DNA of 64,000 bases from IMG/VR virus record IMGVR_UViG_3300021431_000002; one strand, given 5' to 3'. Below are positions 4,625-62,323 of this stretch, piece after piece. The notes beneath the pieces were generated by a model. It made no database searches, was not told the DNA's origin, and saw nothing but the letters and a program-made list of their open reading frames with translations. Position numbers and translations under genes: made by a program. The stretch is from a virus. Lineage: Duplodnaviria; Heunggongvirae; Uroviricota; Caudoviricetes. Position 1 is the stretch's first letter, and the number at the start of each line of letters is the position of its first letter.

Positions 4625-6031
4625 TCATACCGTTAGGCTCTTTAATTTATTTTCAACAATCTCAAATGCTTCATCTTTAGTCATATTAGGATTTTCAAAA
4701 TATGCTTCTTTAACAGCCTCTAAAAGTATTCCAATATTTGGTCCACTTTTTAAATGAAATTCCTTCAAAATATCGTCTCCAGAGATAGGAAGTTTAACAT
4801 TTGCTGCTTTTTCAGCATCTTCCATTTCCTCTATTCTATTGAGAATATCAAGAACTTGCCGTTTTTTCTTACCAAAGGTGCAATAAAGATTATTGGCGTT
4901 CATTAGGTCAGCAGTTGCCCCCAAATCATCACCAGTTAAGTTGATAAATTTTCTAATCTTCTTATCTGGCGGTAATACGCCATCGGCATAACTTGCAAAA
5001 CCTCTATGATGCTTAATGGCTGTTTCAACAGATTTGATGATATAATTAGGGTATTTCATGTCCTTCAAGTCGCTTGCAGCAATTTCTGCACTAAACTTAT
5101 CTGGCATCACATCCCTACGTTTCTCTGTTATAATTCTACCAACATCATGGAACAAAGCAGCCAATCTATTTTCAAGATATGGTTGAACAGTATCTAGCAC
5201 ATTCATTGTATGGTCAAATGTGCTAACCATAGGATTCCTTGACTCATAGGCGTAGGTTGTATCATAAATGTCTGGCATCACTCTATGCAAAATGCCACAG
5301 AAATACATTTTCCGAATACCGATACTTGGTTTTTCACAAAGTAGAATCTTGGATATTTCCTCACTGATTCTTTCTTGTGAAATGATTTGAATACGGTGCG
5401 CATTTTTAACCATCCCTAACCAAGTGTTTTTTTCAATATCCCAACCGAATCTAGTTGAAAAACGAATTACACGTAGGATTCTCAATGGGTCATCATTGAA
5501 CGTAACATCTGGGTCAGTTGGAGTCTTTATTACTTGATTTACTAAGTCATCTATAGAGCCGTTAAAATCATGTATTTTCTCTGTGCTGATGTTATAATAC
5601 AGAGAATTGATGGTAAGGTCACGCCTTTTTGCATCCTCTTCAAGACTTCCGAATACAGTTTCTGGGTTTCTGCTTTCCTTGTGGTACTGTTCCTTTCTAG
5701 TTTGGACACATTCAATCTCTATATCTTTGAATTCATCGTTCTTGAACAATTGGAACTTCGCAGTTCCATAGTTTTCAAACACTACTGGATTAGTATTCTG
5801 AATAAAACACTGGTGTTTTATTGCCATATATACAGCAAACAGCATTCCACCGTTTTTCATTTCAACAACGATGTCAATGTCTTTAATGGGTAATCCTAAC
5901 AATGCATCACGCACACAACCGCCAACTAAATATACTTTCCCTTCAAAATGGGTGTTTTTGATTGACGCTTGTATGAGGTCAACTAAGTGTTTGATTCTAT
6001 CATCAACTTTTTTAAATAATAGTTCGTTCAT
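4625..6031 (-). CDS. cca: CCA-adding enzyme / tRNA nucleotidyltransferase (PolyA_pol head domain plus HD domain)
   Basis: GGCVRDALLGLPIKDIDIVV head-domain signature. FHDVGR HD motif downstream. Confidence 0.75.
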   Translation of the reverse strand: MNELLFKKVDDRIKHLVDLIQASIKNTHFEGKVYLVGGCVRDALLGLPIKDIDIVVEMKNGGMLFAVYMAIKHQCFIQNTNPVVFENYGTAKFQLFKNDEFKDIEIECVQTRKEQYHKESRNPETVFGSLEEDAKRRDLTINSLYYNISTEKIHDFNGSIDDLVNQVIKTPTDPDVTFNDDPLRILRVIRFSTRFGWDIEKNTWLGMVKNAHRIQIISQERISEEISKILLCEKPSIGIRKMYFCGILHRVMPDIYDTTYAYESRNPMVSTFDHTMNVLDTVQPYLENRLAALFHDVGRIITEKRRDVMPDKFSAEIAASDLKDMKYPNYIIKSVETAIKHHRGFASYADGVLPPDKKIRKFINLTGDDLGATADLMNANNLYCTFGKKKRQVLDILNRIEEMEDAEKAANVKLPISGDDILKEFHLKSGPNIGILLEAVKEAYFENPNMTKDEAFEIVENKLKSLTV

Positions 6032-16409: not shown

Positions 16410-16928
16410 TTAATCGTTCTTCTTTAAAACATGGAAGCAGAACTGAGTTCCATTACCTTGCAACATTGATTTGTAATAGGTTCGCCATTCCTTTTCATCA
16501 AACTCTGGAAAAAATGTATCTCCATCATCATCATCTTCCACAATAGTTAACCTTAACTCGTTGACAAGGTTTCTCTCCATAAACTGACGGTATATCTCAC
16601 CACCACCGATTACGAATAGTTCCTTATCAGAGAAAAAAGCGTTACACAATTCGATAACGTCATCAATTGAGTTTACAATGTATACGTTATCGTATTCACC
16701 ACTTACTCCAAAATCTCTAGAAGTCGTAAGAATAATGTTTATCCTATCCTTCAGAGGCACACCATTGGGAAGGGATTCGAAAGTTTTTCTACCCATAATG
16801 ACAACTCCATTATGTTTAGTCATCCTAGCAAAATTATTAATATCGTTATCTATCCGATACAATAATTTACCATTTTTTCCAATTACTTGTTTTCGATTCA
16901 TACAAGCAATAATAATAAATTTAAGCAT
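16410..16928 (-). CDS. folA: dihydrofolate reductase
   Basis: IGKNGKL, VIMGRKTFESLP, PLKDRINIILT and FVIGGGEIY signatures. Start trimmed to the Met that aligns with the DHFR N-terminus. Confidence 0.8.
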   Translation of the reverse strand: MLKFIIIACMNRKQVIGKNGKLLYRIDNDINNFARMTKHNGVVIMGRKTFESLPNGVPLKDRINIILTTSRDFGVSGEYDNVYIVNSIDDVIELCNAFFSDKELFVIGGGEIYRQFMERNLVNELRLTIVEDDDDGDTFFPEFDEKEWRTYYKSMLQGNGTQFCFHVLKKND

Positions 16929-17526
16929 ATATAATATTATTTTGGTTATAAATGTTTTTATAAATTCTATCACTAAAAATATTGTATTTTTTTACTATTG
17001 ATTCCCTAATATAATATTTTAATTTAATTCCGTGTGCTTCACAAATTTCTTTTTTTCTTAAGTCTCTTTCTATTTCGTTTTCTAAAGAACTTGTAAAAAA
17101 ACTAGATTCAATAAAATGCTGTATTCCTTGACACTCGATAGCCACATTTTCTTTATCCAAATAAAAATCCACACTTTGATTACCAAGAATACCGCCAATA
17201 TTACTATACCTTTCATTAGAAATACCCATTCCGTTTAGAATCAATAGTATTTCATTTTCTAACGTACTATTTTTACAATCTGGACACCCTTGACCTCTTA
17301 AATGTGCTGAAGGTATCTGCCAAAATTCGCCATGCTCTGGACATATTATGCACACTTTTGTCTCATTATTTATATATTCTACTTTAGAATAGTCATACTT
17401 ATCACCATGAACTTTTTTAGCATCATTAATAAAGGCATCTAATTTTTTTTTCAATTTATTTGCTGCATTTTTTCTACCGCAAATTGGACATCCTTGACCT
17501 TGAAGATGATTTATAGGCTGCTGCAT
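16921..17526 (-). CDS. putative HEF-like homing endonuclease (duplicated zinc ribbon plus a PD-(D/E)xK-like C-terminus)
   Basis: Duplicated HLQGQGCPICG / HLRGQGCPDCK motifs. VDFYLDKENVAIECQGIQH. The 3' end overlaps the DHFR start. Confidence 0.4.
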   Translation of the reverse strand: MQQPINHLQGQGCPICGRKNAANKLKKKLDAFINDAKKVHGDKYDYSKVEYINNETKVCIICPEHGEFWQIPSAHLRGQGCPDCKNSTLENEILLILNGMGISNERYSNIGGILGNQSVDFYLDKENVAIECQGIQHFIESSFFTSSLENEIERDLRKKEICEAHGIKLKYYIRESIVKKYNIFSDRIYKNIYNQNNIIYA

Positions 17527-20757: not shown

Positions 20758-21363
20758 TTAAACGTCCTCGTCTTCATCCCACAAACGCAACTGAAGAGAA
20801 ATCTCTTCAATGCGAGTCTTGTGGTTGAAAGCCCACTCGTAGTTGTCAATGTCCTTAATCTTGACCCACTTAATCTCGCCTACCTCTGCACCCTCATTCT
20901 TCTCTTTTGAGAACTTGAAGTCAGTGGTGATATGGTTTTCAATCTTAGCACCAAAACGGAAAGTCACATTCTGCCTATTAGCAGTAACTGGGTCATCCTC
21001 ATAACCAATGAATATCAAACTTTCAATAGGAAGTTTAACACCTGTTTCCTCAAAGCACTCACGAACCGCACATTCCTTTGTGGTCTCGTCAAAGTCAAGA
21101 TAGCCACAAGGACAATTCCACATGCCTCTGAAATCAGCAGCTTCTTCACCACGTTCAGATGCTAGAACACACCAATCACCATCAGCATCTTTACAGAATA
21201 CAAAAATGGCTGTTGCCATAGAACGGCTAAACCAACCAATAAATGCTTGGCTTAATACTACTCCAATATCTCCTTCTGAAATGCCCAAACTACTTAAATT
21301 GGCTGCAAGCAATTTTATTGCTTTTTCCATGTCTAGACAAGGACGATTTGTCATTTTCTCCAT
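20758..21363 (-). CDS. Nudix hydrolase
   Basis: Nudix box GYLDFDETTKECAVRECFEETGV (Gx5Ex7REUxEExGU). Confidence 0.75.
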   Translation of the reverse strand: MEKMTNRPCLDMEKAIKLLAANLSSLGISEGDIGVVLSQAFIGWFSRSMATAIFVFCKDADGDWCVLASERGEEAADFRGMWNCPCGYLDFDETTKECAVRECFEETGVKLPIESLIFIGYEDDPVTANRQNVTFRFGAKIENHITTDFKFSKEKNEGAEVGEIKWVKIKDIDNYEWAFNHKTRIEEISLQLRLWDEDEDV

Positions 21364-23793: not shown

Positions 23794-23878
23794 TGTAGCG
23801 AGGGTTGGTTTCGAACCAACGATGAGCCGAAGCTCCCTTCCTTATGAGAGAAGTGCGATAGACCACTCTGCCACCTCG
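23794..23878 (-). tRNA. class-II (long variable arm) tRNA with a CAU anticodon loop CTCATAA. Identity unclear
   Basis: Acceptor GGCGAGG/CCTCGCT plus A73. D-arm GCAGAGTGGTCTATCGC. Anticodon arm CTTCT-CTCATAA-GGAAG. Variable hairpin GGAGCTTCGGCTC. T-arm GTTGG-TTCGAAA-CCAAC. Confidence 0.5.
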
Positions 23879-23952
23879 CCATTAACTAGCTGCGTCACTA
23901 GAATAAATCCGTTCACTATGTTTAAGGTTGTGTACACATACCTACAGCTACT

Positions 23953-27034: not shown

Positions 27035-27083
27035 AATTATAAATATTCGAATACGTACAAAAATAATTAGTATCTGAAATTAG

Positions 27084-27167
27084 AACACCACATGGGATTC
27101 GAACCCATAAGACCTTTCGATACCTCTTTAGGAGAGAGGGACGCTTCCAATTACGTGCTAGTGGTGC
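27084..27167 (-). tRNA. tRNA-Arg(CCU) with an extended variable arm
   Basis: Acceptor GCACCAC/GTGGTGT. Anticodon arm CCTCT-CTCCTAA-AGAGG. Variable TATCGAAAGGTCTT. T-arm ATGGG-TTCGAAT-CCCAT. Confidence 0.55.
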
Positions 27168-33130: not shown

Positions 33131-33426
33131 TAGTGCCAAAGGAACTTTCAAATTAATTCTATCGCATATACCGTGTTTTACGCCTAGACTATAACACATT
33201 TAAGCTAATATCCTTCCGTTTTAGCGCATATACAAATCCTACGTTAGACTCTCTTTGGCTATATCTTTATTTATTAACCCCAATCATCATCATAGTCTTC
33301 ATCGTATTCATCAGAAAGAGATTCATCGCAATCCTCTTCATAATCATCATAAAGGGATTCATCTAGATAATCGTTATACTCCTCAACCATAATTTACAAT
33401 GTTTTTTGTTTCACAATGCAAAGATA

Positions 33427-33464
33427 CGGAAAAAAAATGTAATAGCCAAATTTATTAACTTTTT
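33427..33464 (-). promoter_or_regulatory. Bacteroidetes-type promoter
   Basis: tgcaaagata and ccaaattt boxes. Upstream of a 38-aa acidic micro-ORF (33296-33391). Confidence 0.45.
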
Positions 33465-33865
33465 TTACAAATTGTAACTATTCCAATTATCACCAAAATT
33501 ATAGCGCATAAAATAAAAACGATTAAAACGATAGCTGCCATCCCAATAATAGTAACAGATAGTTTTAAAAGATTATTCGCTAAATTTTGAATGAATGCAG
33601 CAGTCTTTTTTTCTTTTTCTATTTTTTCATCTATTTTTTTCTGTTTCTCTATGGAGTCGGTTTTAGATATTATAGGAACTAACTGCAATTTGTCATTTTC
33701 ATCTATCTTGAGGCCAATATCAACTCGTCCATCATTGAAAATAAGATATTCTTTGCCATTTGCATCTTTTCCCTTTACCCCTTGAAAATAATAGGTATCA
33801 GCATATGTAAACAAAGACAACGATAACGCAATCACAATTGTCCAAATTTTTTTTTCACCAATCAT
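33455..33865 (-). CDS. membrane protein (136 aa)
   Basis: N- and C-terminal transmembrane helices. Confidence 0.4.
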   Translation of the reverse strand: MIGEKKIWTIVIALSLSLFTYADTYYFQGVKGKDANGKEYLIFNDGRVDIGLKIDENDKLQLVPIISKTDSIEKQKKIDEKIEKEKKTAAFIQNLANNLLKLSVTIIGMAAIVLIVFILCAIILVIIGIVTICKKS

Positions 33866-35662: not shown

Positions 35663-35735
35663 ATGCAAAGGTACGAAAAAAAGCTGAACTAGCCAAATAA
35701 TCAGTTCAACTTTAACAATCTTTAATCATTTATTA
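35663..35735. repeat. about 72-bp promoter/leader repeat, copy 1 (second copy at 36337..36410)
   Basis: gcaaaggtacgaaaaaaag..gaacta.ccaaataat.agt.caactttaacaatctttaa is nearly identical in both copies. Confidence 0.6.
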
Positions 35736-36303
35736 AACATCTTCTCTTTTTGGGCTTATAGTCATATGTGAATTCAAATCTTTTAAGCATTTGGTTGACT
35801 GTAAGCATTAAAATATCTTTAAGTTTGTTTTTAAAGAATTCTTGATAATCTTTATATGGAAAATTTTCTTTTTTTCTTTTCCAGTATTTTGTTTTATGCA
35901 GTTTGCTCAAATTAAAATAAAAATTATATCCGTCATACATTTCATCCCCTAAAGATATTGTGTTATCGTTATTTATTTTGAAATAAAATGATATAAATGA
36001 TGTTGGAGAAAAATCGTTAAAAATTGATTTTGTATTTATTAAGAAACCTTTTTGTTCTTTGCAAAATTTATAATGTCCAAATACATAATTATCATAATAA
36101 TAATATTTGCTTCCACAAGGTTTTTCATCCAAAGAACTTGTGAGAATTACGCAGTTATGTAATCCGATAAACTTTAACACTGCTGGTGCTATTGGACTTA
36201 ATGGAACAAATAAAAGATAATCACCAAACATAAAATCTACATAATCAACCCCATAAATTAATTTTTTTTTGTTTTTGTTGTACTCTTCTATAAAATTTGT
36301 CAT
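35722..36303 (-). CDS. hypothetical protein (193 aa)
   Basis: ORF in track. Confidence 0.4.
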   Translation of the reverse strand: MTNFIEEYNKNKKKLIYGVDYVDFMFGDYLLFVPLSPIAPAVLKFIGLHNCVILTSSLDEKPCGSKYYYYDNYVFGHYKFCKEQKGFLINTKSIFNDFSPTSFISFYFKINNDNTISLGDEMYDGYNFYFNLSKLHKTKYWKRKKENFPYKDYQEFFKNKLKDILMLTVNQMLKRFEFTYDYKPKKRRCLIND

Positions 36304-36336
36304 AAAAAAATATTTTTATTACTATTTTAATTTATA

Positions 36337-36410
36337 GTGCAAAGGTACGAAAAAAAGTCGAACTAACCAAATAATTAGTCCAACTTTAACAATCTTTAAC
36401 TTTACACTTG
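36337..36410. repeat. about 72-bp promoter/leader repeat, copy 2
   Basis: See 35663..35735. Confidence 0.6.
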
Positions 36411-36607
36411 TTTTGCGCCTTGTTTATCTTAGGTCAATAATATAGAATAGGTTTACCTATACCAACCATAAAGGTATCCTCTTATCCATCAAGGAACTAG
36501 GGTAAGGGGCTAATCCTCGCACCGCATTACTGCTTCACCTACCATTTCTTACGTGGTTTGTGCTGTCTTACCTATTTCAGTACTTCACTTGAGTACACCA
36601 GCCGTAG

Positions 36608-36698
36608 TGAGCATAGTAGGATTCGAACCCACGATGAACTTTCTCAAGCCCATAACGGTTTTAGGGACCGCCACAATCGACCACTCTGCCATATGCCC
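36608..36698 (-). tRNA. class-II tRNA with a CUA anticodon loop (CCCTAAA): candidate amber-suppressor tRNA
   Basis: Acceptor GGGCATA/TATGCTC plus A73. D-arm GCA-GAGTGGTCGAT-TGT. Anticodon arm GCGGT-CCCTAAA-ACCGT. Long variable arm. T-arm GTGGG-TTCGAAT-CCTAC. Confidence 0.45.
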
Positions 36699-36707
36699 AG
36701 TTAAATA

Positions 36708-37028
36708 TTAAGATTCAGATAATCTTTTTAATTTATTATTAAGAACAAGAATCATACCTTCAGCGATTAGTTTCTCATTCTCATAGTGTTTTATTCTTTT
36801 TTTCAAAGTTTCAACTAGTACTTTATTTGCTTCTTCTGTGGTGTCATATACTACACTGCCGTTAATTAGATAATCACCATTTGCTAGGTCTTTCCGTCCA
36901 ATTTTGAAAATAGGGCGTTCCCTACCATCATCAATTGGTTTACTAACTACGACACTAGTAGTTATTTCATCATCACCACTTATATATATGGCAGTATCGC
37001 CAACATTTAAATCTGCTGCTTTTTTCAT
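36708..37028 (-). CDS. hypothetical protein (106 aa)
   Basis: ORF in track. Confidence 0.4.
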   Translation of the reverse strand: MKKAADLNVGDTAIYISGDDEITTSVVVSKPIDDGRERPIFKIGRKDLANGDYLINGSVVYDTTEEANKVLVETLKKRIKHYENEKLIAEGMILVLNNKLKRLSES

Positions 37029-37129
37029 AATGCAAATATATGAAAATTATTTTAAATAACAAAATATTTTCAATAGTTTTAACAAAAAAAAGCACTATAA
37101 GCTAAAGCCCATAGTACTTTTATATCGCA

Positions 37130-38973: not shown

Positions 38974-40185
38974 ATGAGAATTACTTATTGCAGGGACTGA
39001 CGGATTCGAACCGCCATCGTTTATTAACAGTTAAAGGCACACTCTGTTCCGAGGTCGAGAGTGCTTTATTCCTTAAAGCGCAACAAATTACTTTACCATT
39101 AAGCTAAATCCCTATATAAATACAAAAGACTGAGAATGTTGTCTTATTGTTAATGCCATTTTACAAGCGTTGGAACTTGCTATTCACACGTCACCTTACG
39201 ATGAACGTAGACATCATGCACGGAAGTCTTGAGAAGACAACCAAGAATCTTACTAGTTTAAACCTTGCGGTGCAGCATCATAGCTTTCAGTTCTTCGCCA
39301 AGCTCTTGCGGATTCATAGGATGCCTCCTATTAACTCAGACGAGTACTTTTACACGCTCATTGAATTCCTTGCGAGTCCTCAATGTCTCAATATTTCATG
39401 AGAATAAGTGCATTTTAGCTGCCTAGTGTCGCACACTTTTGCTTAAATTGATTTTTGAATCATATTTATGTTCCGTAGGCGGTTTGGAAGACGAGGTGCG
39501 ACTAAGGACATCTGTAACTTTTGGCTACAGCCCATCCAATCGCCTCCCTGTGCTAGCTCACCACAAGCTATTCACTATTATACACCATCACCTCATATGA
39601 GTTCTTACACATTTCTATGTAAGACTAGTGCATAACTGAGTACAACACGCCAACTGGTGATTATTGCATCATACTCCATACAGTAATCTATCGTGTCACC
39701 ACTCATTCAAAGATTCCTCACCCTTGAAAATATACAACTTTGGTGTTACCCACATTGTATACCGTACTGTATGCTTTTCAGTGAAATACATGAGAGTTTC
39801 TCATATATCTGCAACGTTTACCGCTAGTACACGTCACATTTATCCCATCACTGGATTATCCTTCCATCTGGCTACGAAAGCTAGCCATTAGCCTCATATC
39901 TTTCGCAAGATATTTCCTCATGGAAATTGGCTTATTTCTTGAGTTTTTCATTCGTTTTCAGTTTATTATAATAGGTAAACTGCTTCCTCTTTAGAGGTGG
40001 GTTCATATCCCAAGCTCCTATTTTTTAGCCCTACATCGAATTTTTTTACCCAATACTTACTTTTTTCTAGTACACGTTCTCTAGAATATGGTTCCCGAAG
40101 TTACCATTGCTATGGATTGTTTAACCACATAAAACCCATTTTTACCGTTGTCTACGGCACGAAAAGGCATATCTCGTTGGTTAGA

Positions 40186-40320
40186 GCAGATTTGCACTGC
40201 TGAAGCTTCCGAAGAAACACATCAAGCACGAACTTGATGCCCATTTGTCTACATCGTCATTGCTGACGTTCTCCTCTGGTACTAACCAAAAGGTGGTTTT
40301 TTGACTTGTCCACCACAAGG
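40186..40320. repeat. about 135-bp direct repeat, copy 1 (copy 2 at 40481..40620)
   Basis: gatttgcact..gaag..tccgaaga..cacatcaagcacgaacttgatgcccatttgtctacatcgtcattgctgacgttctcctctggta..ccaaaaggtggtttttt. Contains the CATCAAG/CTTGATG hairpin. Confidence 0.7.
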
Positions 40321-40480
40321 TATAGTGTGTAGTATTGTAAAGGCTAATTCATTTTGCAGAACTAATTTAATGGTAAAGGACATCTGCTATGTTTCATACA
40401 GTTGTGTGTTTGTCGCAACCTCACTTTCCTCGCCAACCTTTACTGCCGATTGCACCTGAGCGTTTATACTACATTTGTTG

Positions 40481-40620
40481 GTAGAGCTAGATTTGCACTA
40501 GCGAAGACTCCGAAGAGCCACATCAAGCACGAACTTGATGCCCATTTGTCTACATCGTCATTGCTGACGTTCTCCTCTGGTATCTACCAAAAGGTGGTTT
40601 TTTAACTTGCCCACCACAAG
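40481..40620. repeat. about 135-bp direct repeat, copy 2
   Basis: See 40186..40320. Confidence 0.7.
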
Positions 40621-40625
40621 AATAG

Positions 40626-40698
40626 TTGCGGCAGTAGGAGTCGAACCCACTGTTACTAGGTTATGAGCCTAGTGTGTAAACCGTTTCACTCTGCCACG
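40626..40698 (-). tRNA. tRNA(CAU), Met or Ile2 type, with C1:A72
   Basis: Acceptor CGTGGCA/TGCCGCA. Anticodon arm CTAGG-CTCATAA-CCTAG. T-arm GTGGG-TTCGACT-CCTAC. Confidence 0.6.
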
Positions 40699-41452: not shown

Positions 41453-41965
41453 AACTAAATTGTTTTTTTACTTTAAAAATAATCAGCTACACGAACCTCT
41501 TCAATGTACTTATGAAAGATTCCCTTCCATACATGTTATACAGATTAACGCATGACTTATATCCTAATATAGCCTAACTTTACTGTAAAAGTTTACTTCA
41601 TCATCCAACCCTGACTGATTATTTAGTGGACTTGCGCAGAGTCGAACTGCGGTCCAAACAACCATTCCATAAGAAATTATACAAGCTTTGATTTGGAAAG
41701 TTGACAGCAAACGCTGCCCTCACCGCTACCTTATTTTGCGAAAACAAGGAAAACTATACAAAGATGACTAAAGAATAATGCTAGGGTGTTCTGTTCCTAA
41801 GAGCCTAGCCTCTCGGCTTACATTACGCAGCTATAGCGTACTCGTAAGCAGGAGAATCAACATTCTCGCCAGTTATATTTTTTGCTATTGAAGTGTATGC
41901 CCACTGCTTGTTTCTTACCAAATGCATTGCTGTCAAATCCATTACAAGCCCATGATAAAAAATTG

Positions 41966-42925: not shown

Positions 42926-43233
42926 TATTTCGCCTACTGTACCCCTTCGAGCCATCGCAGACTTGTCTTGCATTAACGTAGTTAAGACCAATATACGGCA
43001 TTCTTAATCTAAAGTATGCTTACGAGCACGTTATAAAGAATATGGAGTTGTTTAACTTGTCCTGTTTATAAACCCCTAACGTACAAAAGGTTATTTTTCA
43101 GTATATCTAAAATGAAAACCACAATGAGGGCATAAAAACACCTCACCATTCTCATCAATCGCATTGGAAACGTCAATTTTGACATGATTTCCACATCTTA
43201 CACATTCTACTTCCATAACATTTATTTTTATAA

Positions 43234-43273
43234 TGCAAAGATATGTAAAAAAAATGAAATAGCCAAATATTTT
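43234..43273 (-). promoter_or_regulatory. Bacteroidetes-type promoter
   Basis: tgcaaagata and ccaaatatttt boxes. Upstream of a 41-aa CxxC zinc-ribbon micro-ORF (43091-43217). Confidence 0.45.
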
Positions 43274-43294
43274 AACATTTTTTTTATGAAAAAG

Positions 43295-52353: not shown

Positions 52354-52359
52354 TTTTTG

Positions 52360-52442
52360 AGCTGGAGACAGGATTCGAACCTGCGAGGGCTTTCGCCTTT
52401 GGGTTACAAAGCCAACCTATTCAACCACTCTAGCACTCCAGC
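52360..52442 (-). tRNA. class-II tRNA with an unresolved anticodon (Tyr- or Leu-like body)
   Basis: Acceptor GCTGGAG/CTCCAGC. D-stem CTA/TAG. Variable hairpin GGC-GAAA-GCC. T-arm GCAGG-TTCGAAT-CCTGT. Confidence 0.5.
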
Positions 52443-52659: not shown

Positions 52660-53136
52660 TTATGTTTTATTTTTACCACAATATGTTTCTGTTTGAGAAT
52701 GGCAGTTAGGGCATAATAGTCTTAAATTTTCTATCCTATTATCTCTATTATTGCCGTTAATGTGGTCTAATTGTAAAACTATTTTTTTACCCAACCATTC
52801 ATTAATACCACATATTGCACATTTATATTCTATTAAATTTGACTTTAGAATTCTTAGTTTAAGACGAGTCATATTTGTATATATACTATCTTTTACTAAA
52901 ATTTTTTCTAAAGGAAATGTTTCATTTTTGGCTAAACCATTAGATTTACCTAAAAAATGAGAAAAACTAATATTATTCTCTCTAAGATATTTTTTCAACG
53001 GTTGATACGAGTTTCCTCTATTCGCAGTATAGCCTAGTTTTCTCATAACTTCAGCGAATGTTTTGCTATTTTGCACAATATTAGATAACTCTTCTTTATC
53101 AATTTTTTTATAATAACATTCCATTATTATTTTCAA
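52660..53136 (-). CDS. HNH homing-type endonuclease, inserted between the two halves of a Tyr-like tRNA
   Basis: LQLDHINGNNRDNRIENLRLLCPNCH HNH motif. Flanked by tRNA half sequences. Confidence 0.75.
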   Translation of the reverse strand: MKIIMECYYKKIDKEELSNIVQNSKTFAEVMRKLGYTANRGNSYQPLKKYLRENNISFSHFLGKSNGLAKNETFPLEKILVKDSIYTNMTRLKLRILKSNLIEYKCAICGINEWLGKKIVLQLDHINGNNRDNRIENLRLLCPNCHSQTETYCGKNKT

Positions 53137-54484: not shown

Positions 54485-54503
54485 ATTTGGAAATTTGATT
54501 TTG

Positions 54504-54592
54504 TATAGAGGGTGGGATTCGAACCCACAAGTACCTTTCGATACACTAGTTTCGTAGACTAGGACGGTCATCCAGTTACGTTTTACCCCTAC
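54504..54592 (-). tRNA. tRNA-Arg(ACG) with an extended variable arm (89 nt)
   Basis: Acceptor GTAGGGG/CCTCTAT. D-loop AACTGGATGA. Anticodon arm CTAGT-CTACGAA-ACTAG. Variable TGTATCGAAAGGTACT. T-arm GTGGG-TTCGAAT-CCCAC. Confidence 0.55.
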
Positions 54593-54975: not shown

Positions 54976-55500
54976 ACGAAGGCACCCGTATCCTTCTCTT
55001 AATGGGTTATTTATCACATACACATCAGTTGTTGTGGTCTAGAATACATTATTACCATATTGAAATTCTTGCAAGTAAAGAACATCAGATAACACTATTT
55101 TAGGACTGTCAGCCTCTCTCGATGACTGTATACGGGGTTGTCATCCCAAATAGGTAATGAGCCTATCGTACCATTTCTTTTGTTCTTAATTTCAACTTAG
55201 GTATCTCCTATATGCTCTCTACACATTTATGAATGTAGCATACTTAATCATTAACTTTTCTGAAGCGTATTTTCATTCTCATTAGAGATTTTTTCGCCTC
55301 TACATTCAATTTAGCACGGTATTATCCTTACACGTTATTGGTTAGTGTGACGTTCTCTTAGTGCGCTGTGCATAACCTTTGAACTATAGTAGCACGTGCC
55401 GTTTTCCAAGAAGGACTTCCACCGTTTTAGGGAGATTCTACATAGGGATTTCTCGCCTATGCATCCAATTTGGTTTAATCATTTTCGGATGTATTTATTG

Positions 55501-55581
55501 TGATGGGACTGGGACTCGAACCCAGATTCCTTTCGGAGCCAGTTTAGAAGACTGGTGCATTATCCATCCTGCCCTCCCACC
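55501..55581 (-). tRNA. tRNA-Arg(UCU)-like with a 3-bp D-stem and an extended variable arm
   Basis: Acceptor GGTGGGA/TCCCATC. D-arm GCA-GGATGGATAA-TGC. Anticodon arm CCAGT-CTTCTAA-ACTGG. T-arm CTGGG-TTCGAGT-CCCAG. Confidence 0.5.
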
Positions 55582-55979
55582 AAATAAAATTTATCTATTT
55601 TTTCATTATATCTATAAAACTTACAACCAAGTTCAGATATTATTTCTTTTTGCCTTTTGATGGGTCATAATCCCCATAAATAAAAGGCTCTTTTGGGTCA
55701 ACCTTTTTAGCGTGTTTAATCTCATAGAGAAATAATCCAAGAGATAAAACCACCATAATCCCTATAACAATAAAAATAATAGTCATAATTATTGTTTGTT
55801 TTTTATTTTGTTGGCTAAATCATCAATATCCTTTTCAAAAGTTTCTCTGTTTTCTTTTTTAGAGGTTTTATTGCCTTTTCTACCTAAGAAATCAGACACC
55901 ACCATAAATACAAGTGCCATGATTAATGCAGTGAACATAAAAAATAGTAATCTTCCCATTTGTTTTTTCGTTTTAACAA

Positions 55980-56015
55980 TGCAAATATATGAAAAAAAAT
56001 TGGAATAGCCAAATT
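55980..56015 (-). promoter_or_regulatory. Bacteroidetes-type promoter variant
   Basis: tgcaaatata and ccaaatt boxes. Confidence 0.4.
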
Positions 56016-56034
56016 ATTTCACATTTTTAAAGAA

Positions 56035-56274
56035 TTATTTTTGTTTAATGTAATTGTTCCAAGAAAGTTGTGTTGAAGGAATACCTCTCTTCAACCCCTC
56101 TTCTCTCCAAGCCTTAAATGCATCATAGGATGGATTACCCATTCTTCCTAATCCTTTAAAATTCTGTTCTCTTTCCTCTGGTGTATAAGGAGTAAACTGG
56201 TCTACATTACCAAAAGTTGCTTCTTCAATTGTTTCTCTAATGATTTGTTTTATTCTATCTTCTGAAAGTTTCAT
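56035..56274 (-). CDS. hypothetical protein (79 aa)
   Basis: ORF in track. Confidence 0.4.
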   Translation of the reverse strand: MKLSEDRIKQIIRETIEEATFGNVDQFTPYTPEEREQNFKGLGRMGNPSYDAFKAWREEGLKRGIPSTQLSWNNYIKQK

Positions 56275-62141: not shown

Positions 62142-62237
62142 AGTTAAAATGCCAACACTCTAGAATTCTTGCATTATATCCTCTATCGTCTTATGCTGCT
62201 CTTAGAGAGGTTGCCTAAAGACTTGCGTTAGCATTTG

Positions 62238-62323
62238 TCGGAGGGGAGGGATTCGAACCCCCAGTGTTTCTGATGTGCTGGTTTTACAGACCAGTGCTAA
62301 TCCGCCATCTTAGCAGCCCTCCG
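62238..62323 (-). tRNA. tRNA-Tyr(GUA), class II
   Basis: Acceptor CGGAGGG/CCCTCCG plus A73. D-stem GCT/AGC. Anticodon arm CTGGT-CTGTAAA-ACCAG. Long variable arm. T-arm GGGGG-TTCGAAT-CCCTC. Confidence 0.7.

Follow-up and report, generated by a model that had tools for sequence, protein, structure and literature searches.

The 64,000-nucleotide stretch of the Caudoviricetes record IMGVR_UViG_3300021431_000002 analysed here, hereafter called the window, carries a transfer RNA (tRNA) gene at positions 36608 to 36698 whose anticodon, CUA, is complementary to the stop codon UAG. This gene, tRNA(CUA), lies in an island of about 45 kb that holds around 40 tRNAs and a transfer-messenger RNA (tmRNA), and the genes around it encode a CCA-adding enzyme, RtcB, an RNA ligase, IF3, a sigma factor, DnaJ, NAD-salvage functions and a tyrosyl-tRNA synthetase (TyrRS). 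Exact protein matches placed the window, in reversed orientation, at positions 118985-182984 of NODE_9 (407,876 bp) in the ENA entry ERZ12302815, referred to below as the record. All genes of the window are on its minus strand, as are the 32 RNA genes that ARAGORN detected in it, and the GC content is about 34%. A second assembly measures 407,879 bp, and further fragments come from sheep and cattle rumen samples. No relative was found among the GenBank phages, in which only the tRNAs and a 40%-identical RtcB gave matches. Loci other than the window are designated by L numbers.

Structure of the tRNA(CUA) gene

ARAGORN called a tRNA of 92 nt at 36607..36698 on the minus strand, with the anticodon cta at position 35, and labelled it 'Pyl' solely because the anticodon is cta. 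The Rfam tRNA family RF00005 matched 36608..36698 on the same strand with 48.1 bits (gathering score 29; E = 3.4e-7 for the whole window), which makes the gene a member of this family, with the cloverleaf of 7-bp acceptor, D, anticodon and T arms. The register was identical in the Infernal alignment and in the ARAGORN drawing, and neither of them put the anticodon anywhere else. In both, the acceptor stem is GGGCAUA/UAUGCUC with a G2.U71 pair. The D-stem is GCAG/UUGU, its outer two pairs (10-25 and 13-22) being G.U, and the anticodon stem GCGGU/ACCGU encloses a loop of 7 nt, C32 C33 C34 U35 A36 A37 A38. The variable region of 22 nt forms an 8-bp stem, AUGGGCUU/AAGUUCAU, capped by a GAGA loop, and the T arm reads GUGGG-UUCGAAU-CCUAC. 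The discriminator is A73 and the 3' CCA is not part of the gene. Two marks of canonical elongator tRNAs, G18G19 and the T-loop UUCGAAU, are both present. A third, U33, makes the U-turn of the anticodon loop and is near-universal in tRNAs; the window copy has C33 in its place.

The earlier note on this DNA, which had folded the tRNA by hand, is borne out in most of these points. It had placed CUA at 34-36 within the 7-nt loop CCCTAAA, between the stem halves GCGGT and ACCGT, and had described A73, a long variable arm and an atypical C at position 33. All of these appear in the two structure calls. The ARAGORN run that it had proposed as a check on the register kept CUA at 34-36 and gave neither a 9-nt loop nor a sense anticodon. 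The 3-bp D-stem of the note was nearly right and has to be replaced by GCAG/UUGU with its two G.U pairs. Folded as a single sequence, the tRNA was no better than its shuffles (z = -1.36), so that support for the structure must come from comparison.

Conservation and covariation in the phage family

The sequence of tRNA(CUA) is 100% identical in 6 independent assemblies, which are near-identical strains. More distant relatives were found in IMG/VR, namely 4 contigs of 409.5-412.8 kb and many fragments. Ten loci of relatives were anchored on the neighbouring HIT-family gene, whose product is 62-88% identical to that of the window, and ARAGORN called a CUA tRNA in 8 of them, always 1-2.5 kb upstream of the HIT-family gene and therefore in synteny. 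An exact search of IMG/VR with the anticodon stem-loop gave no match, the orthologue contigs differing in the stem; an IMG/VR fragment identical to this phage stops short of the tRNA, and a metagenome scan yielded no contig beyond the known one.

The window copy and its 8 orthologues were aligned (9 copies, 8 distinct sequences). Neither CUA nor A73 varies, and the acceptor stem is unchanged over most of its length. At position 33, 6 orthologues carry U and 3 copies (window, L043 and L049) carry C. Since 6 orthologues have U33, the alignment indicates that C33 in the window copy is a tolerated variant of a U33 ancestor and not a family-wide defect, perhaps one that tunes efficiency. Of the 8 distinct sequences, 7 form a Watson-Crick U-A at 31-39, where L044 and L045 have a C.A mismatch. 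The variable arm has 22 nt in 3 copies and about 16 nt in 3 others, and is absent from the remaining 3, which are 77-nt class-I forms.

Standard pairs occupy 94.7% of the cells of the cloverleaf pairing, against 36-56% when the partners are slid by 1-3 columns. Both sides have changed in 8 pairs in total, including 3 of the 5 anticodon-stem pairs, and the observed covariation score was reached by none of 500 shuffles. As CUA is invariant while the stems show compensatory changes, the comparison indicates that selection acts on the fold of tRNA(CUA) as well as on its reading of UAG, and that the gene is not a decayed copy or a one-off anticodon mutation. The conservation of CUA across so diverged a family also argues for the proposal, made in the earlier note, that this anticodon would decode UAG. 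We consider it likely, from these comparisons, that tRNA(CUA) is a functional UAG-decoding tRNA.

Search for TAG recoding

Because a stop-reading anticodon is so tightly conserved, some genes of the family most likely contain in-frame UAG. Our leading reading, to which we give an even chance, is that tRNA(CUA) is a functional amber suppressor and that the family has UAG codons needing to be read, most likely in late genes outside the sampled part, the early and middle genes using TAG as a stop.

Several results weigh against this reading. In a composite of 91.9 kb (record positions 100006-191911, 22.5% of the genome), 111 open reading frames (ORFs) end with TAA in 75 cases, TGA in 24 and TAG in 12 (11%); TAG is thus not depleted as a terminator in the way of a code 15-like genome. 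No ORF of the composite is interrupted by TAG, which agrees with the earlier description of the window ORFs as intact under the standard code, and ORF length gains no more from a sense reading of TAG than from one of TGA. Read-through extensions after the three stops are alike, with a median distance to the next in-frame stop of 6.5 codons after TAG, 6 after TAA and 7.5 after TGA. The TAG that ends a 230-amino-acid (aa) ORF upstream of a 171-aa gene is kept in 3 relatives at about 80% identity. The loci of relatives come from five genome parts (in the coordinates of this phage about 0, 29-54, 100-210, 245-259 and 290-315 kb), that is about 45% of the genome according to our approximate mapping. 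Outside the tRNA island, table 11 assigns 69-93% of their length to coding sequence, a sense reading of TAG gains no more than one of TGA, and no TAG-interrupted gene was seen in these 45% of genome-equivalents. The sampled early and middle regions thus lack the in-frame TAG in conserved genes and the gain in coding density that go with a code 15-like genome. Nor did a release-factor gene turn up, no search having been aimed at release factors. Finally, C33 may reduce the efficiency of decoding.

Inside the tRNA island ORF coverage is low owing to the tRNA genes, and apparent TAG-specific gains are spurious; one such gain, at L088, corresponds to a stretch of 11 tRNA genes. Candidate TAG read-through junctions in L044 (151+181 aa), L047 (150+286 aa), L034/L035 (62+45 aa), L039 and L045 failed the homology check. 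They were rejected because they turned out to be two genes whose frames differ in relatives, alternative reading frames over a genuine gene (the 148-aa protein and Band_7) or overlaps with tRNAs.

The procedure is able to detect recoding: in a positive control, L067 8940-12248 from an unrelated phage of 31% GC (IMGVR_UViG_3300032038_001026) that the promoter-motif scan of IMG/VR also picked up, 19 in-frame TAGs lie within an ORF of about 1100 codons. By its sequence this phage is clearly a TAG-recoded one of Bacteroidota type.

All genes sampled belong to early or middle classes, namely NrdD, DnaB-like and other helicases, an exonuclease, thymidylate synthase, a Lon-like protease, Thg1-like and other nucleotidyltransferases, sigma factors and RNA-repair enzymes. 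Terminase, portal, capsid and tail genes are absent from the sampled regions. Half of the sampling came from a host-type promoter motif (119 loci in a scan of IMG/VR) and is biased to early genes. These loci, together with an anchor on the Lon-like protease, yielded only genes of nucleotide metabolism, replication, RNA repair and translation. A PHROG 'virion structural protein' match at L011 15829-16383, traced downstream through L052, led to no structural genes. Clean early and middle regions fit a recoding confined to late genes, as is usual in crAss-like phages, and by this analogy the chance that tRNA(CUA) serves block-wise late-gene recoding may be put slightly below even.

A weak hint of read-through comes from the 145-aa ORF just upstream of RtcB. 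Its terminal TAG is followed by a 19-codon in-frame extension, FLPMRQKDKIEKYIDKINI, which reaches the RtcB start. One relative, whose ORF is 85% identical, keeps both the TAG and the extension, with 1 synonymous change and 1 Ile->Leu replacement. The extension is possibly a read-through target or a conserved regulatory region.

Amino acid identity

The view of tRNA(CUA) as a Tyr/Leu-like class II tRNA, put forward in the earlier note, is not supported. In a class II tRNA the long arm is constant within the isoacceptor; here it is missing from 3 orthologues, and in this phage it is also borne by tRNAs with Arg (TCT, ACG, CCT), Thr (TGT) and Met (CAT) anticodons. Moreover, the closest annotated phage tRNAs are tRNA-Ser. 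Since different orthologues have the arm in full, shortened or not at all, it appears to be dispensable for the identity of tRNA(CUA). Long arms on Arg, Thr, Met and, in relatives, Trp tRNAs (Table 1) are unusual and might affect recognition by synthetases or nucleases.

The discriminator is G73 for Ser and A73 for Leu and Tyr, and by established identity rules A73 with U35-A36 would suit a bacterial TyrRS. The invariant A73 of tRNA(CUA) fits Tyr, Leu and Lys and does not fit Ser, yet its D-arm and anticodon stem (the 5' half) are near-identical to a tRNA-Ser(UGA) of the human-gut sequence MT838243, which matches at 34 of 38 positions. A paralogue search among the other 34 tRNAs of this phage revealed no clear source, the best scores being spread over Met, Ser, Lys and Leu. 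The acceptor stem, searched in 185,579 species genomes, gave 8 chance matches and no cellular tRNA. The candidate amino acids suggested by these features are Tyr (A73, U35-A36 and a TyrRS in the sampled relatives), Ser (5' half), Leu, Lys and Gln.

The phage TyrRS is of full-length bacterial type (E = 6e-115 to a solved TyrRS) and was found in all sampled relatives. In this strain and in L131 its HIGH signature is GVHH and not HLGH. L040, a fragment otherwise identical to this phage, has a copy that is 71% identical and carries the canonical HLGH, so that the TyrRS region is mosaic. The phage enzyme keeps the D-x-D motif found in its E. coli counterpart, and in this comparison nothing in it suggests an adaptation to C34. 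TyrRS and tRNA(CUA) could be natural partners, a synthetase and its suppressor, by which UAG is written as Tyr or another non-Gln residue. This might happen in a small number of late genes, or serve programmed read-through and host sabotage backed by tmRNA, with TAG remaining a normal stop early. The two genes show no direct link, and we regard such a pair as rather improbable. If it existed, the reassignment would differ from the TAG->Gln change reported for phages of standard-code hosts.

Genome context of tRNA(CUA)

More than 30 intergenic copies of a repeat of about 50 nt with the promoter-like motif TTTG-N19/20-TAnnTTTGCA occur on the gene strand within 92 kb, and the motif is present in all relatives. 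We take it to be the Bacteroides-type consensus, that is, the housekeeping promoter of Bacteroidota. As the motif is of this type, the host is very probably a member of the Bacteroidota, and the Bacteroidota phage setting evoked in the earlier note gains support from these copies. It also looks as though this region is transcribed by the host polymerase. From their positions, tRNA(CUA) is probably co-transcribed with the 106-aa ORF that precedes it (Table 1).

Since the tRNA(CUA) gene lacks CCA, a CCA-adding enzyme is needed, and one is encoded in the window. The tmRNA lies 4.5-6 kb upstream of tRNA(CUA) in the window and in 5 relatives, with small changes of the tag among relatives; it might possibly rescue ribosomes after read-through. 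With the CCA-adding enzyme, RtcB, RNA ligase, IF3, TyrRS and tmRNA nearby, the gene content indicates that the phage invests heavily in translation.

The RNA-repair and cofactor genes form a dense set: RNA ligase, CCA-adding enzyme, RtcB, NAPRTase, NADAR, NAD synthase, dihydrofolate reductase and Nudix hydrolase. This set suggests that the phage protects the translation apparatus and the NAD pool from host defences. In one relative (L027 12764-15042) a LAGLIDADG endonuclease ORF, an intron or intein, divides RtcB into two ORFs. Further endonuclease genes, of HNH and DUF723 type, are dispersed in the tRNA island (window 52660-53136 and 16921-17526; L019 7022-7993).

The window also contains irregular tRNAs. 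One tRNA-like gene has a two-base 'tt' anticodon, and a similar oddity, 'ca', occurs in L042, L044 and L045. The tRNA-Tyr(GUA) has a C1-G72 first pair, 3 bases between the acceptor and D stems and a long, unpaired variable region. A direct repeat of 132 nt, 91% identical (window 40188-40319 and 40489-40620), occupies an ORF-free gap of about 1.5 kb (39113-40626) in the tRNA island; it could represent non-coding RNA or degenerate tRNA copies.

Table 1. Features of the tRNA(CUA) locus and related features; positions refer to the window unless a locus or the record is named
Feature	Position	Strand	Remarks
tRNA gene, anticodon CUA	36608..36698	-	7/5 acceptor/T, 8-bp variable arm, A73, no encoded CCA; ARAGORN and Rfam RF00005
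Anticodon C34 U35 A36 (TAG on + strand)	36662..36664	-	Invariant in 9/9 aligned copies
Position 33, C and not the near-universal U	36665..36665	-	G on + strand; from alignment
Long variable arm	36634..36653	-	8-bp stem and GAGA loop; present, shortened or absent among orthologues
106-aa ORF	36708..37028	-	Stop codon 9 nt upstream of tRNA(CUA)
Promoter-like motif TTTG-N20-TATATTTGCA	37031..37075	-	Just upstream of and overlapping the 106-aa ORF start; motif position 37040; putative, nearest upstream promoter for tRNA(CUA)
Next promoter-like motif	36323..36394	-	About 250 nt downstream of tRNA(CUA); would serve ORF 36303..35722 and bound the transcription unit of the tRNA
Promoter-like motif, examples (+ strand coordinates)	37016-37087, 36323-36394, 33402-33473, 43219-43290, 55965-56036		
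CCA-adding enzyme (tRNA nucleotidyltransferase)	4625..6031	-	Pfam PolyA_pol 1.6e-25; PHROG 2244 2.8e-64
Phage tmRNA	41624..41951	-	Tag peptide GENVDSPAYEYAIAA; ARAGORN, Rfam
RNA-repair/cofactor genes	1074-1979, 4625-6031, 16410-16973, 20758-21363; flanks L011, L015		
TyrRS gene	L019 7990-9270 (record 107995-109275)		Outside the window; conserved in relatives
145-aa ORF ending with TAG	L019 11773-12270; L030 11820-12311 (record 111778-112275)		Just upstream of RtcB; positions include the extension, the ORF alone being record 111778-112215
Long-arm tRNAs	55500-55581, 54503-54592, 27083-27167 (Arg); 52359-52442 (Thr); 23795-23880 (Met)		GAAA or UUCG caps
Long-arm tRNAs with Trp anticodon CCA, relatives	L002 959-1048; L046 787-873		GAAA or UUCG caps
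Irregular tRNA-like gene, two-base 'tt' anticodon	61962-62033	-	ARAGORN; Rfam 40.6 bits; same place in L037, L038, L039, L040, L050
Non-canonical tRNA-Tyr(GUA)	62237-62323	-	ARAGORN; below Rfam gathering threshold; conserved in relatives
Rfam tRNA match spanning 123 nt	38991-39113	-	42.1 bits, no ARAGORN call; may contain an intron or be otherwise interrupted

Proposed function and alternative explanations

According to our leading reading, tRNA(CUA) would be transcribed from a host-type promoter together with the 106-aa ORF upstream, its 3' end would be completed by the phage CCA-adding enzyme, and a synthetase would charge it. The charged tRNA would then insert its amino acid at UAG. By analogy with crAss-like phages, the genes with in-frame UAG would be late or structural ones. 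By itself, tRNA(CUA) shows no alternative genetic code, and phage amber suppressor tRNAs are already known.

The strongest alternative, clearly less likely in our view, retains a functional suppressor and assumes the standard code throughout the genome. Partial UAG read-through could then harm host protein synthesis or defence proteins, extend a few phage proteins or buffer nonsense mutations, and tmRNA would rescue the ribosomes that run off their messages. The linkage of tmRNA to tRNA(CUA) in the window and 5 relatives is in line with this explanation, as are the use of TAG as an ordinary, partly conserved stop and the lack of any recoded gene in about 45% of genome-equivalents; that sampling, however, was skewed to regions with host-type promoters, that is to early genes. 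The extension after the TAG upstream of RtcB also speaks for it, but is kept in one relative only and may be a conserved regulatory region. That CUA stays invariant over deep divergence makes better sense if the phage cannot read its own genes without the tRNA. Precedents exist in crAss-like phages, for which suppressors without detectable recoding and the idea of anti-host read-through have been discussed (PMC7886860), and the gain of a suppressor ahead of recoding has been described (bioRxiv 10.1101/2021.08.26.457843).

A further possibility, which we consider improbable, is a tRNA-shaped RNA without a decoding role, either a paralogue in decay or an RNA acting as decoy or competitor towards host nucleases or modification enzymes that target tRNAs. 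It could be invoked on account of C33, which breaks a near-universal rule, of the other odd tRNAs of the phage (long arms on Arg, Thr and Met tRNAs, the conserved 'tt' tRNA) and of a single-sequence fold that does not stand above its shuffles. Against it, 6 orthologues have the canonical U33, the invariant anticodon and covarying stems are the signature of a working tRNA, and the acceptor stem and A73 are conserved as expected under recognition by a synthetase.

Hallmarks of tRNA-Pyl are a 3-nt variable loop, a small D-loop without G18G19 and an atypical T-loop. A sense codon read in another register (8- or 9-nt loop), or a tRNA-Pyl or tRNA-Sec, is essentially refuted by the structure despite the ARAGORN label 'tRNA-Pyl' and a 31-39 mismatch that could open the loop in L044 and L045: both tools give the 7-nt loop with CUA at 34-36, the 31-39 pair is intact in all but one of the distinct sequences, the tRNA-Pyl hallmarks are missing where G18G19, UUCGAAU and a long variable arm are found, no pylS or pylBCD appears in the Pfam lists of the flanks, and tRNA-Sec has a UCA anticodon and an 8/5 arrangement in place of 7/5.

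Phage suppressor tRNAs have been proposed as a switch between early and late genetic codes in gut phages. Here a suppressor is conserved across a rumen phage family of about 410 kb whose sampled early and middle part, with over 100 genes adjoining the tRNA, keeps TAG as a stop. Recoded late genes, as our leading reading supposes them, would make this family a clean example of block-wise dual coding in a megaphage, in which the amino acid of UAG could be read from alignments. Without such recoding, a long-conserved suppressor in a standard-code phage has to be explained in some other way, for instance by host sabotage, by programmed read-through or by interplay with tmRNA; to our knowledge, explanations of this kind have been proposed for such a suppressor and never shown. 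In either case, table 15 should not be set for the annotation of this genome from tRNA(CUA) alone.

Comparison with known systems

Lak phages are recoded more widely than crAss-like phages. In the latter, recoding as a rule stays within the late genes, and suppressor tRNAs sometimes occur without detectable recoding (PMC7886860; bioRxiv 10.1101/2021.08.26.457843). TAG-recoded crAss-like and Lak phages are known from Bacteroidota hosts (bioRxiv 10.1101/2021.08.26.457843; PMC7886860), and the reported reassignment in phages is TAG->Gln (Borges et al., bioRxiv 10.1101/2021.08.26.457843). tRNA(CUA) resembles the Sup-CTA tRNAs of TAG-recoded gut phages (crAss-like, Lak, Garnet, Amethyst; 10.1101/2021.08.26.457843, PMC7886860) in being phage-encoded, in its CUA anticodon and in its place among phage tRNAs, where the genome uses the standard code; the phages themselves share a low GC content, a Bacteroidota host and a gut or rumen habitat. 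The present phage differs from them in that its sampled regions contain no in-frame TAG and 11% of its ORFs here end with TAG, and it belongs to a distinct group of about 410 kb with no relative among GenBank phages. The tRNA itself differs in its variable arm, which changes among orthologues, and in the C33 of this copy. Unlike a Sup-CTA tRNA for Gln, it lacks identity elements classical for E. coli tRNA-Gln, having A73 and not G73 and a strong G1-C72 pair.

With the allo-tRNAs described by Mukai et al. (PMC5389517) it shares a long arm combined with an anticodon outside Ser, Leu and Tyr, as do the Arg, Thr and Met tRNAs of this phage; allo-tRNAs have an 8/4 or 9/3 acceptor/T arrangement, unlike the standard 7/5 of tRNA(CUA). 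The 13- or 12-bp branch of tRNA-Sec and allo-tRNAs (8/5, 9/4, 8/4 or 9/3) is not seen here. With tRNA-Pyl, CUA is the sole feature in common: tRNA(CUA) has G18G19, UUCGAAU, a normal D-loop and a long arm, and no pyl genes were seen around it.

Class II amber suppressors of E. coli include supF (tRNA-Tyr CUA), supD (tRNA-Ser CUA) and supP (tRNA-Leu CUA), which are single-base laboratory mutants of cellular tRNAs. Like them, tRNA(CUA) carries CUA on a long-arm tRNA, with A73 as in Tyr and Leu, a D-loop layout of Ser/Tyr type and a 5' half close to that of a gut tRNA-Ser(UGA). Unlike them, it has an acceptor stem that occurs in no cellular tRNA of the species genomes searched and an arm that appears dispensable, and it is a natural gene conserved in a phage family.

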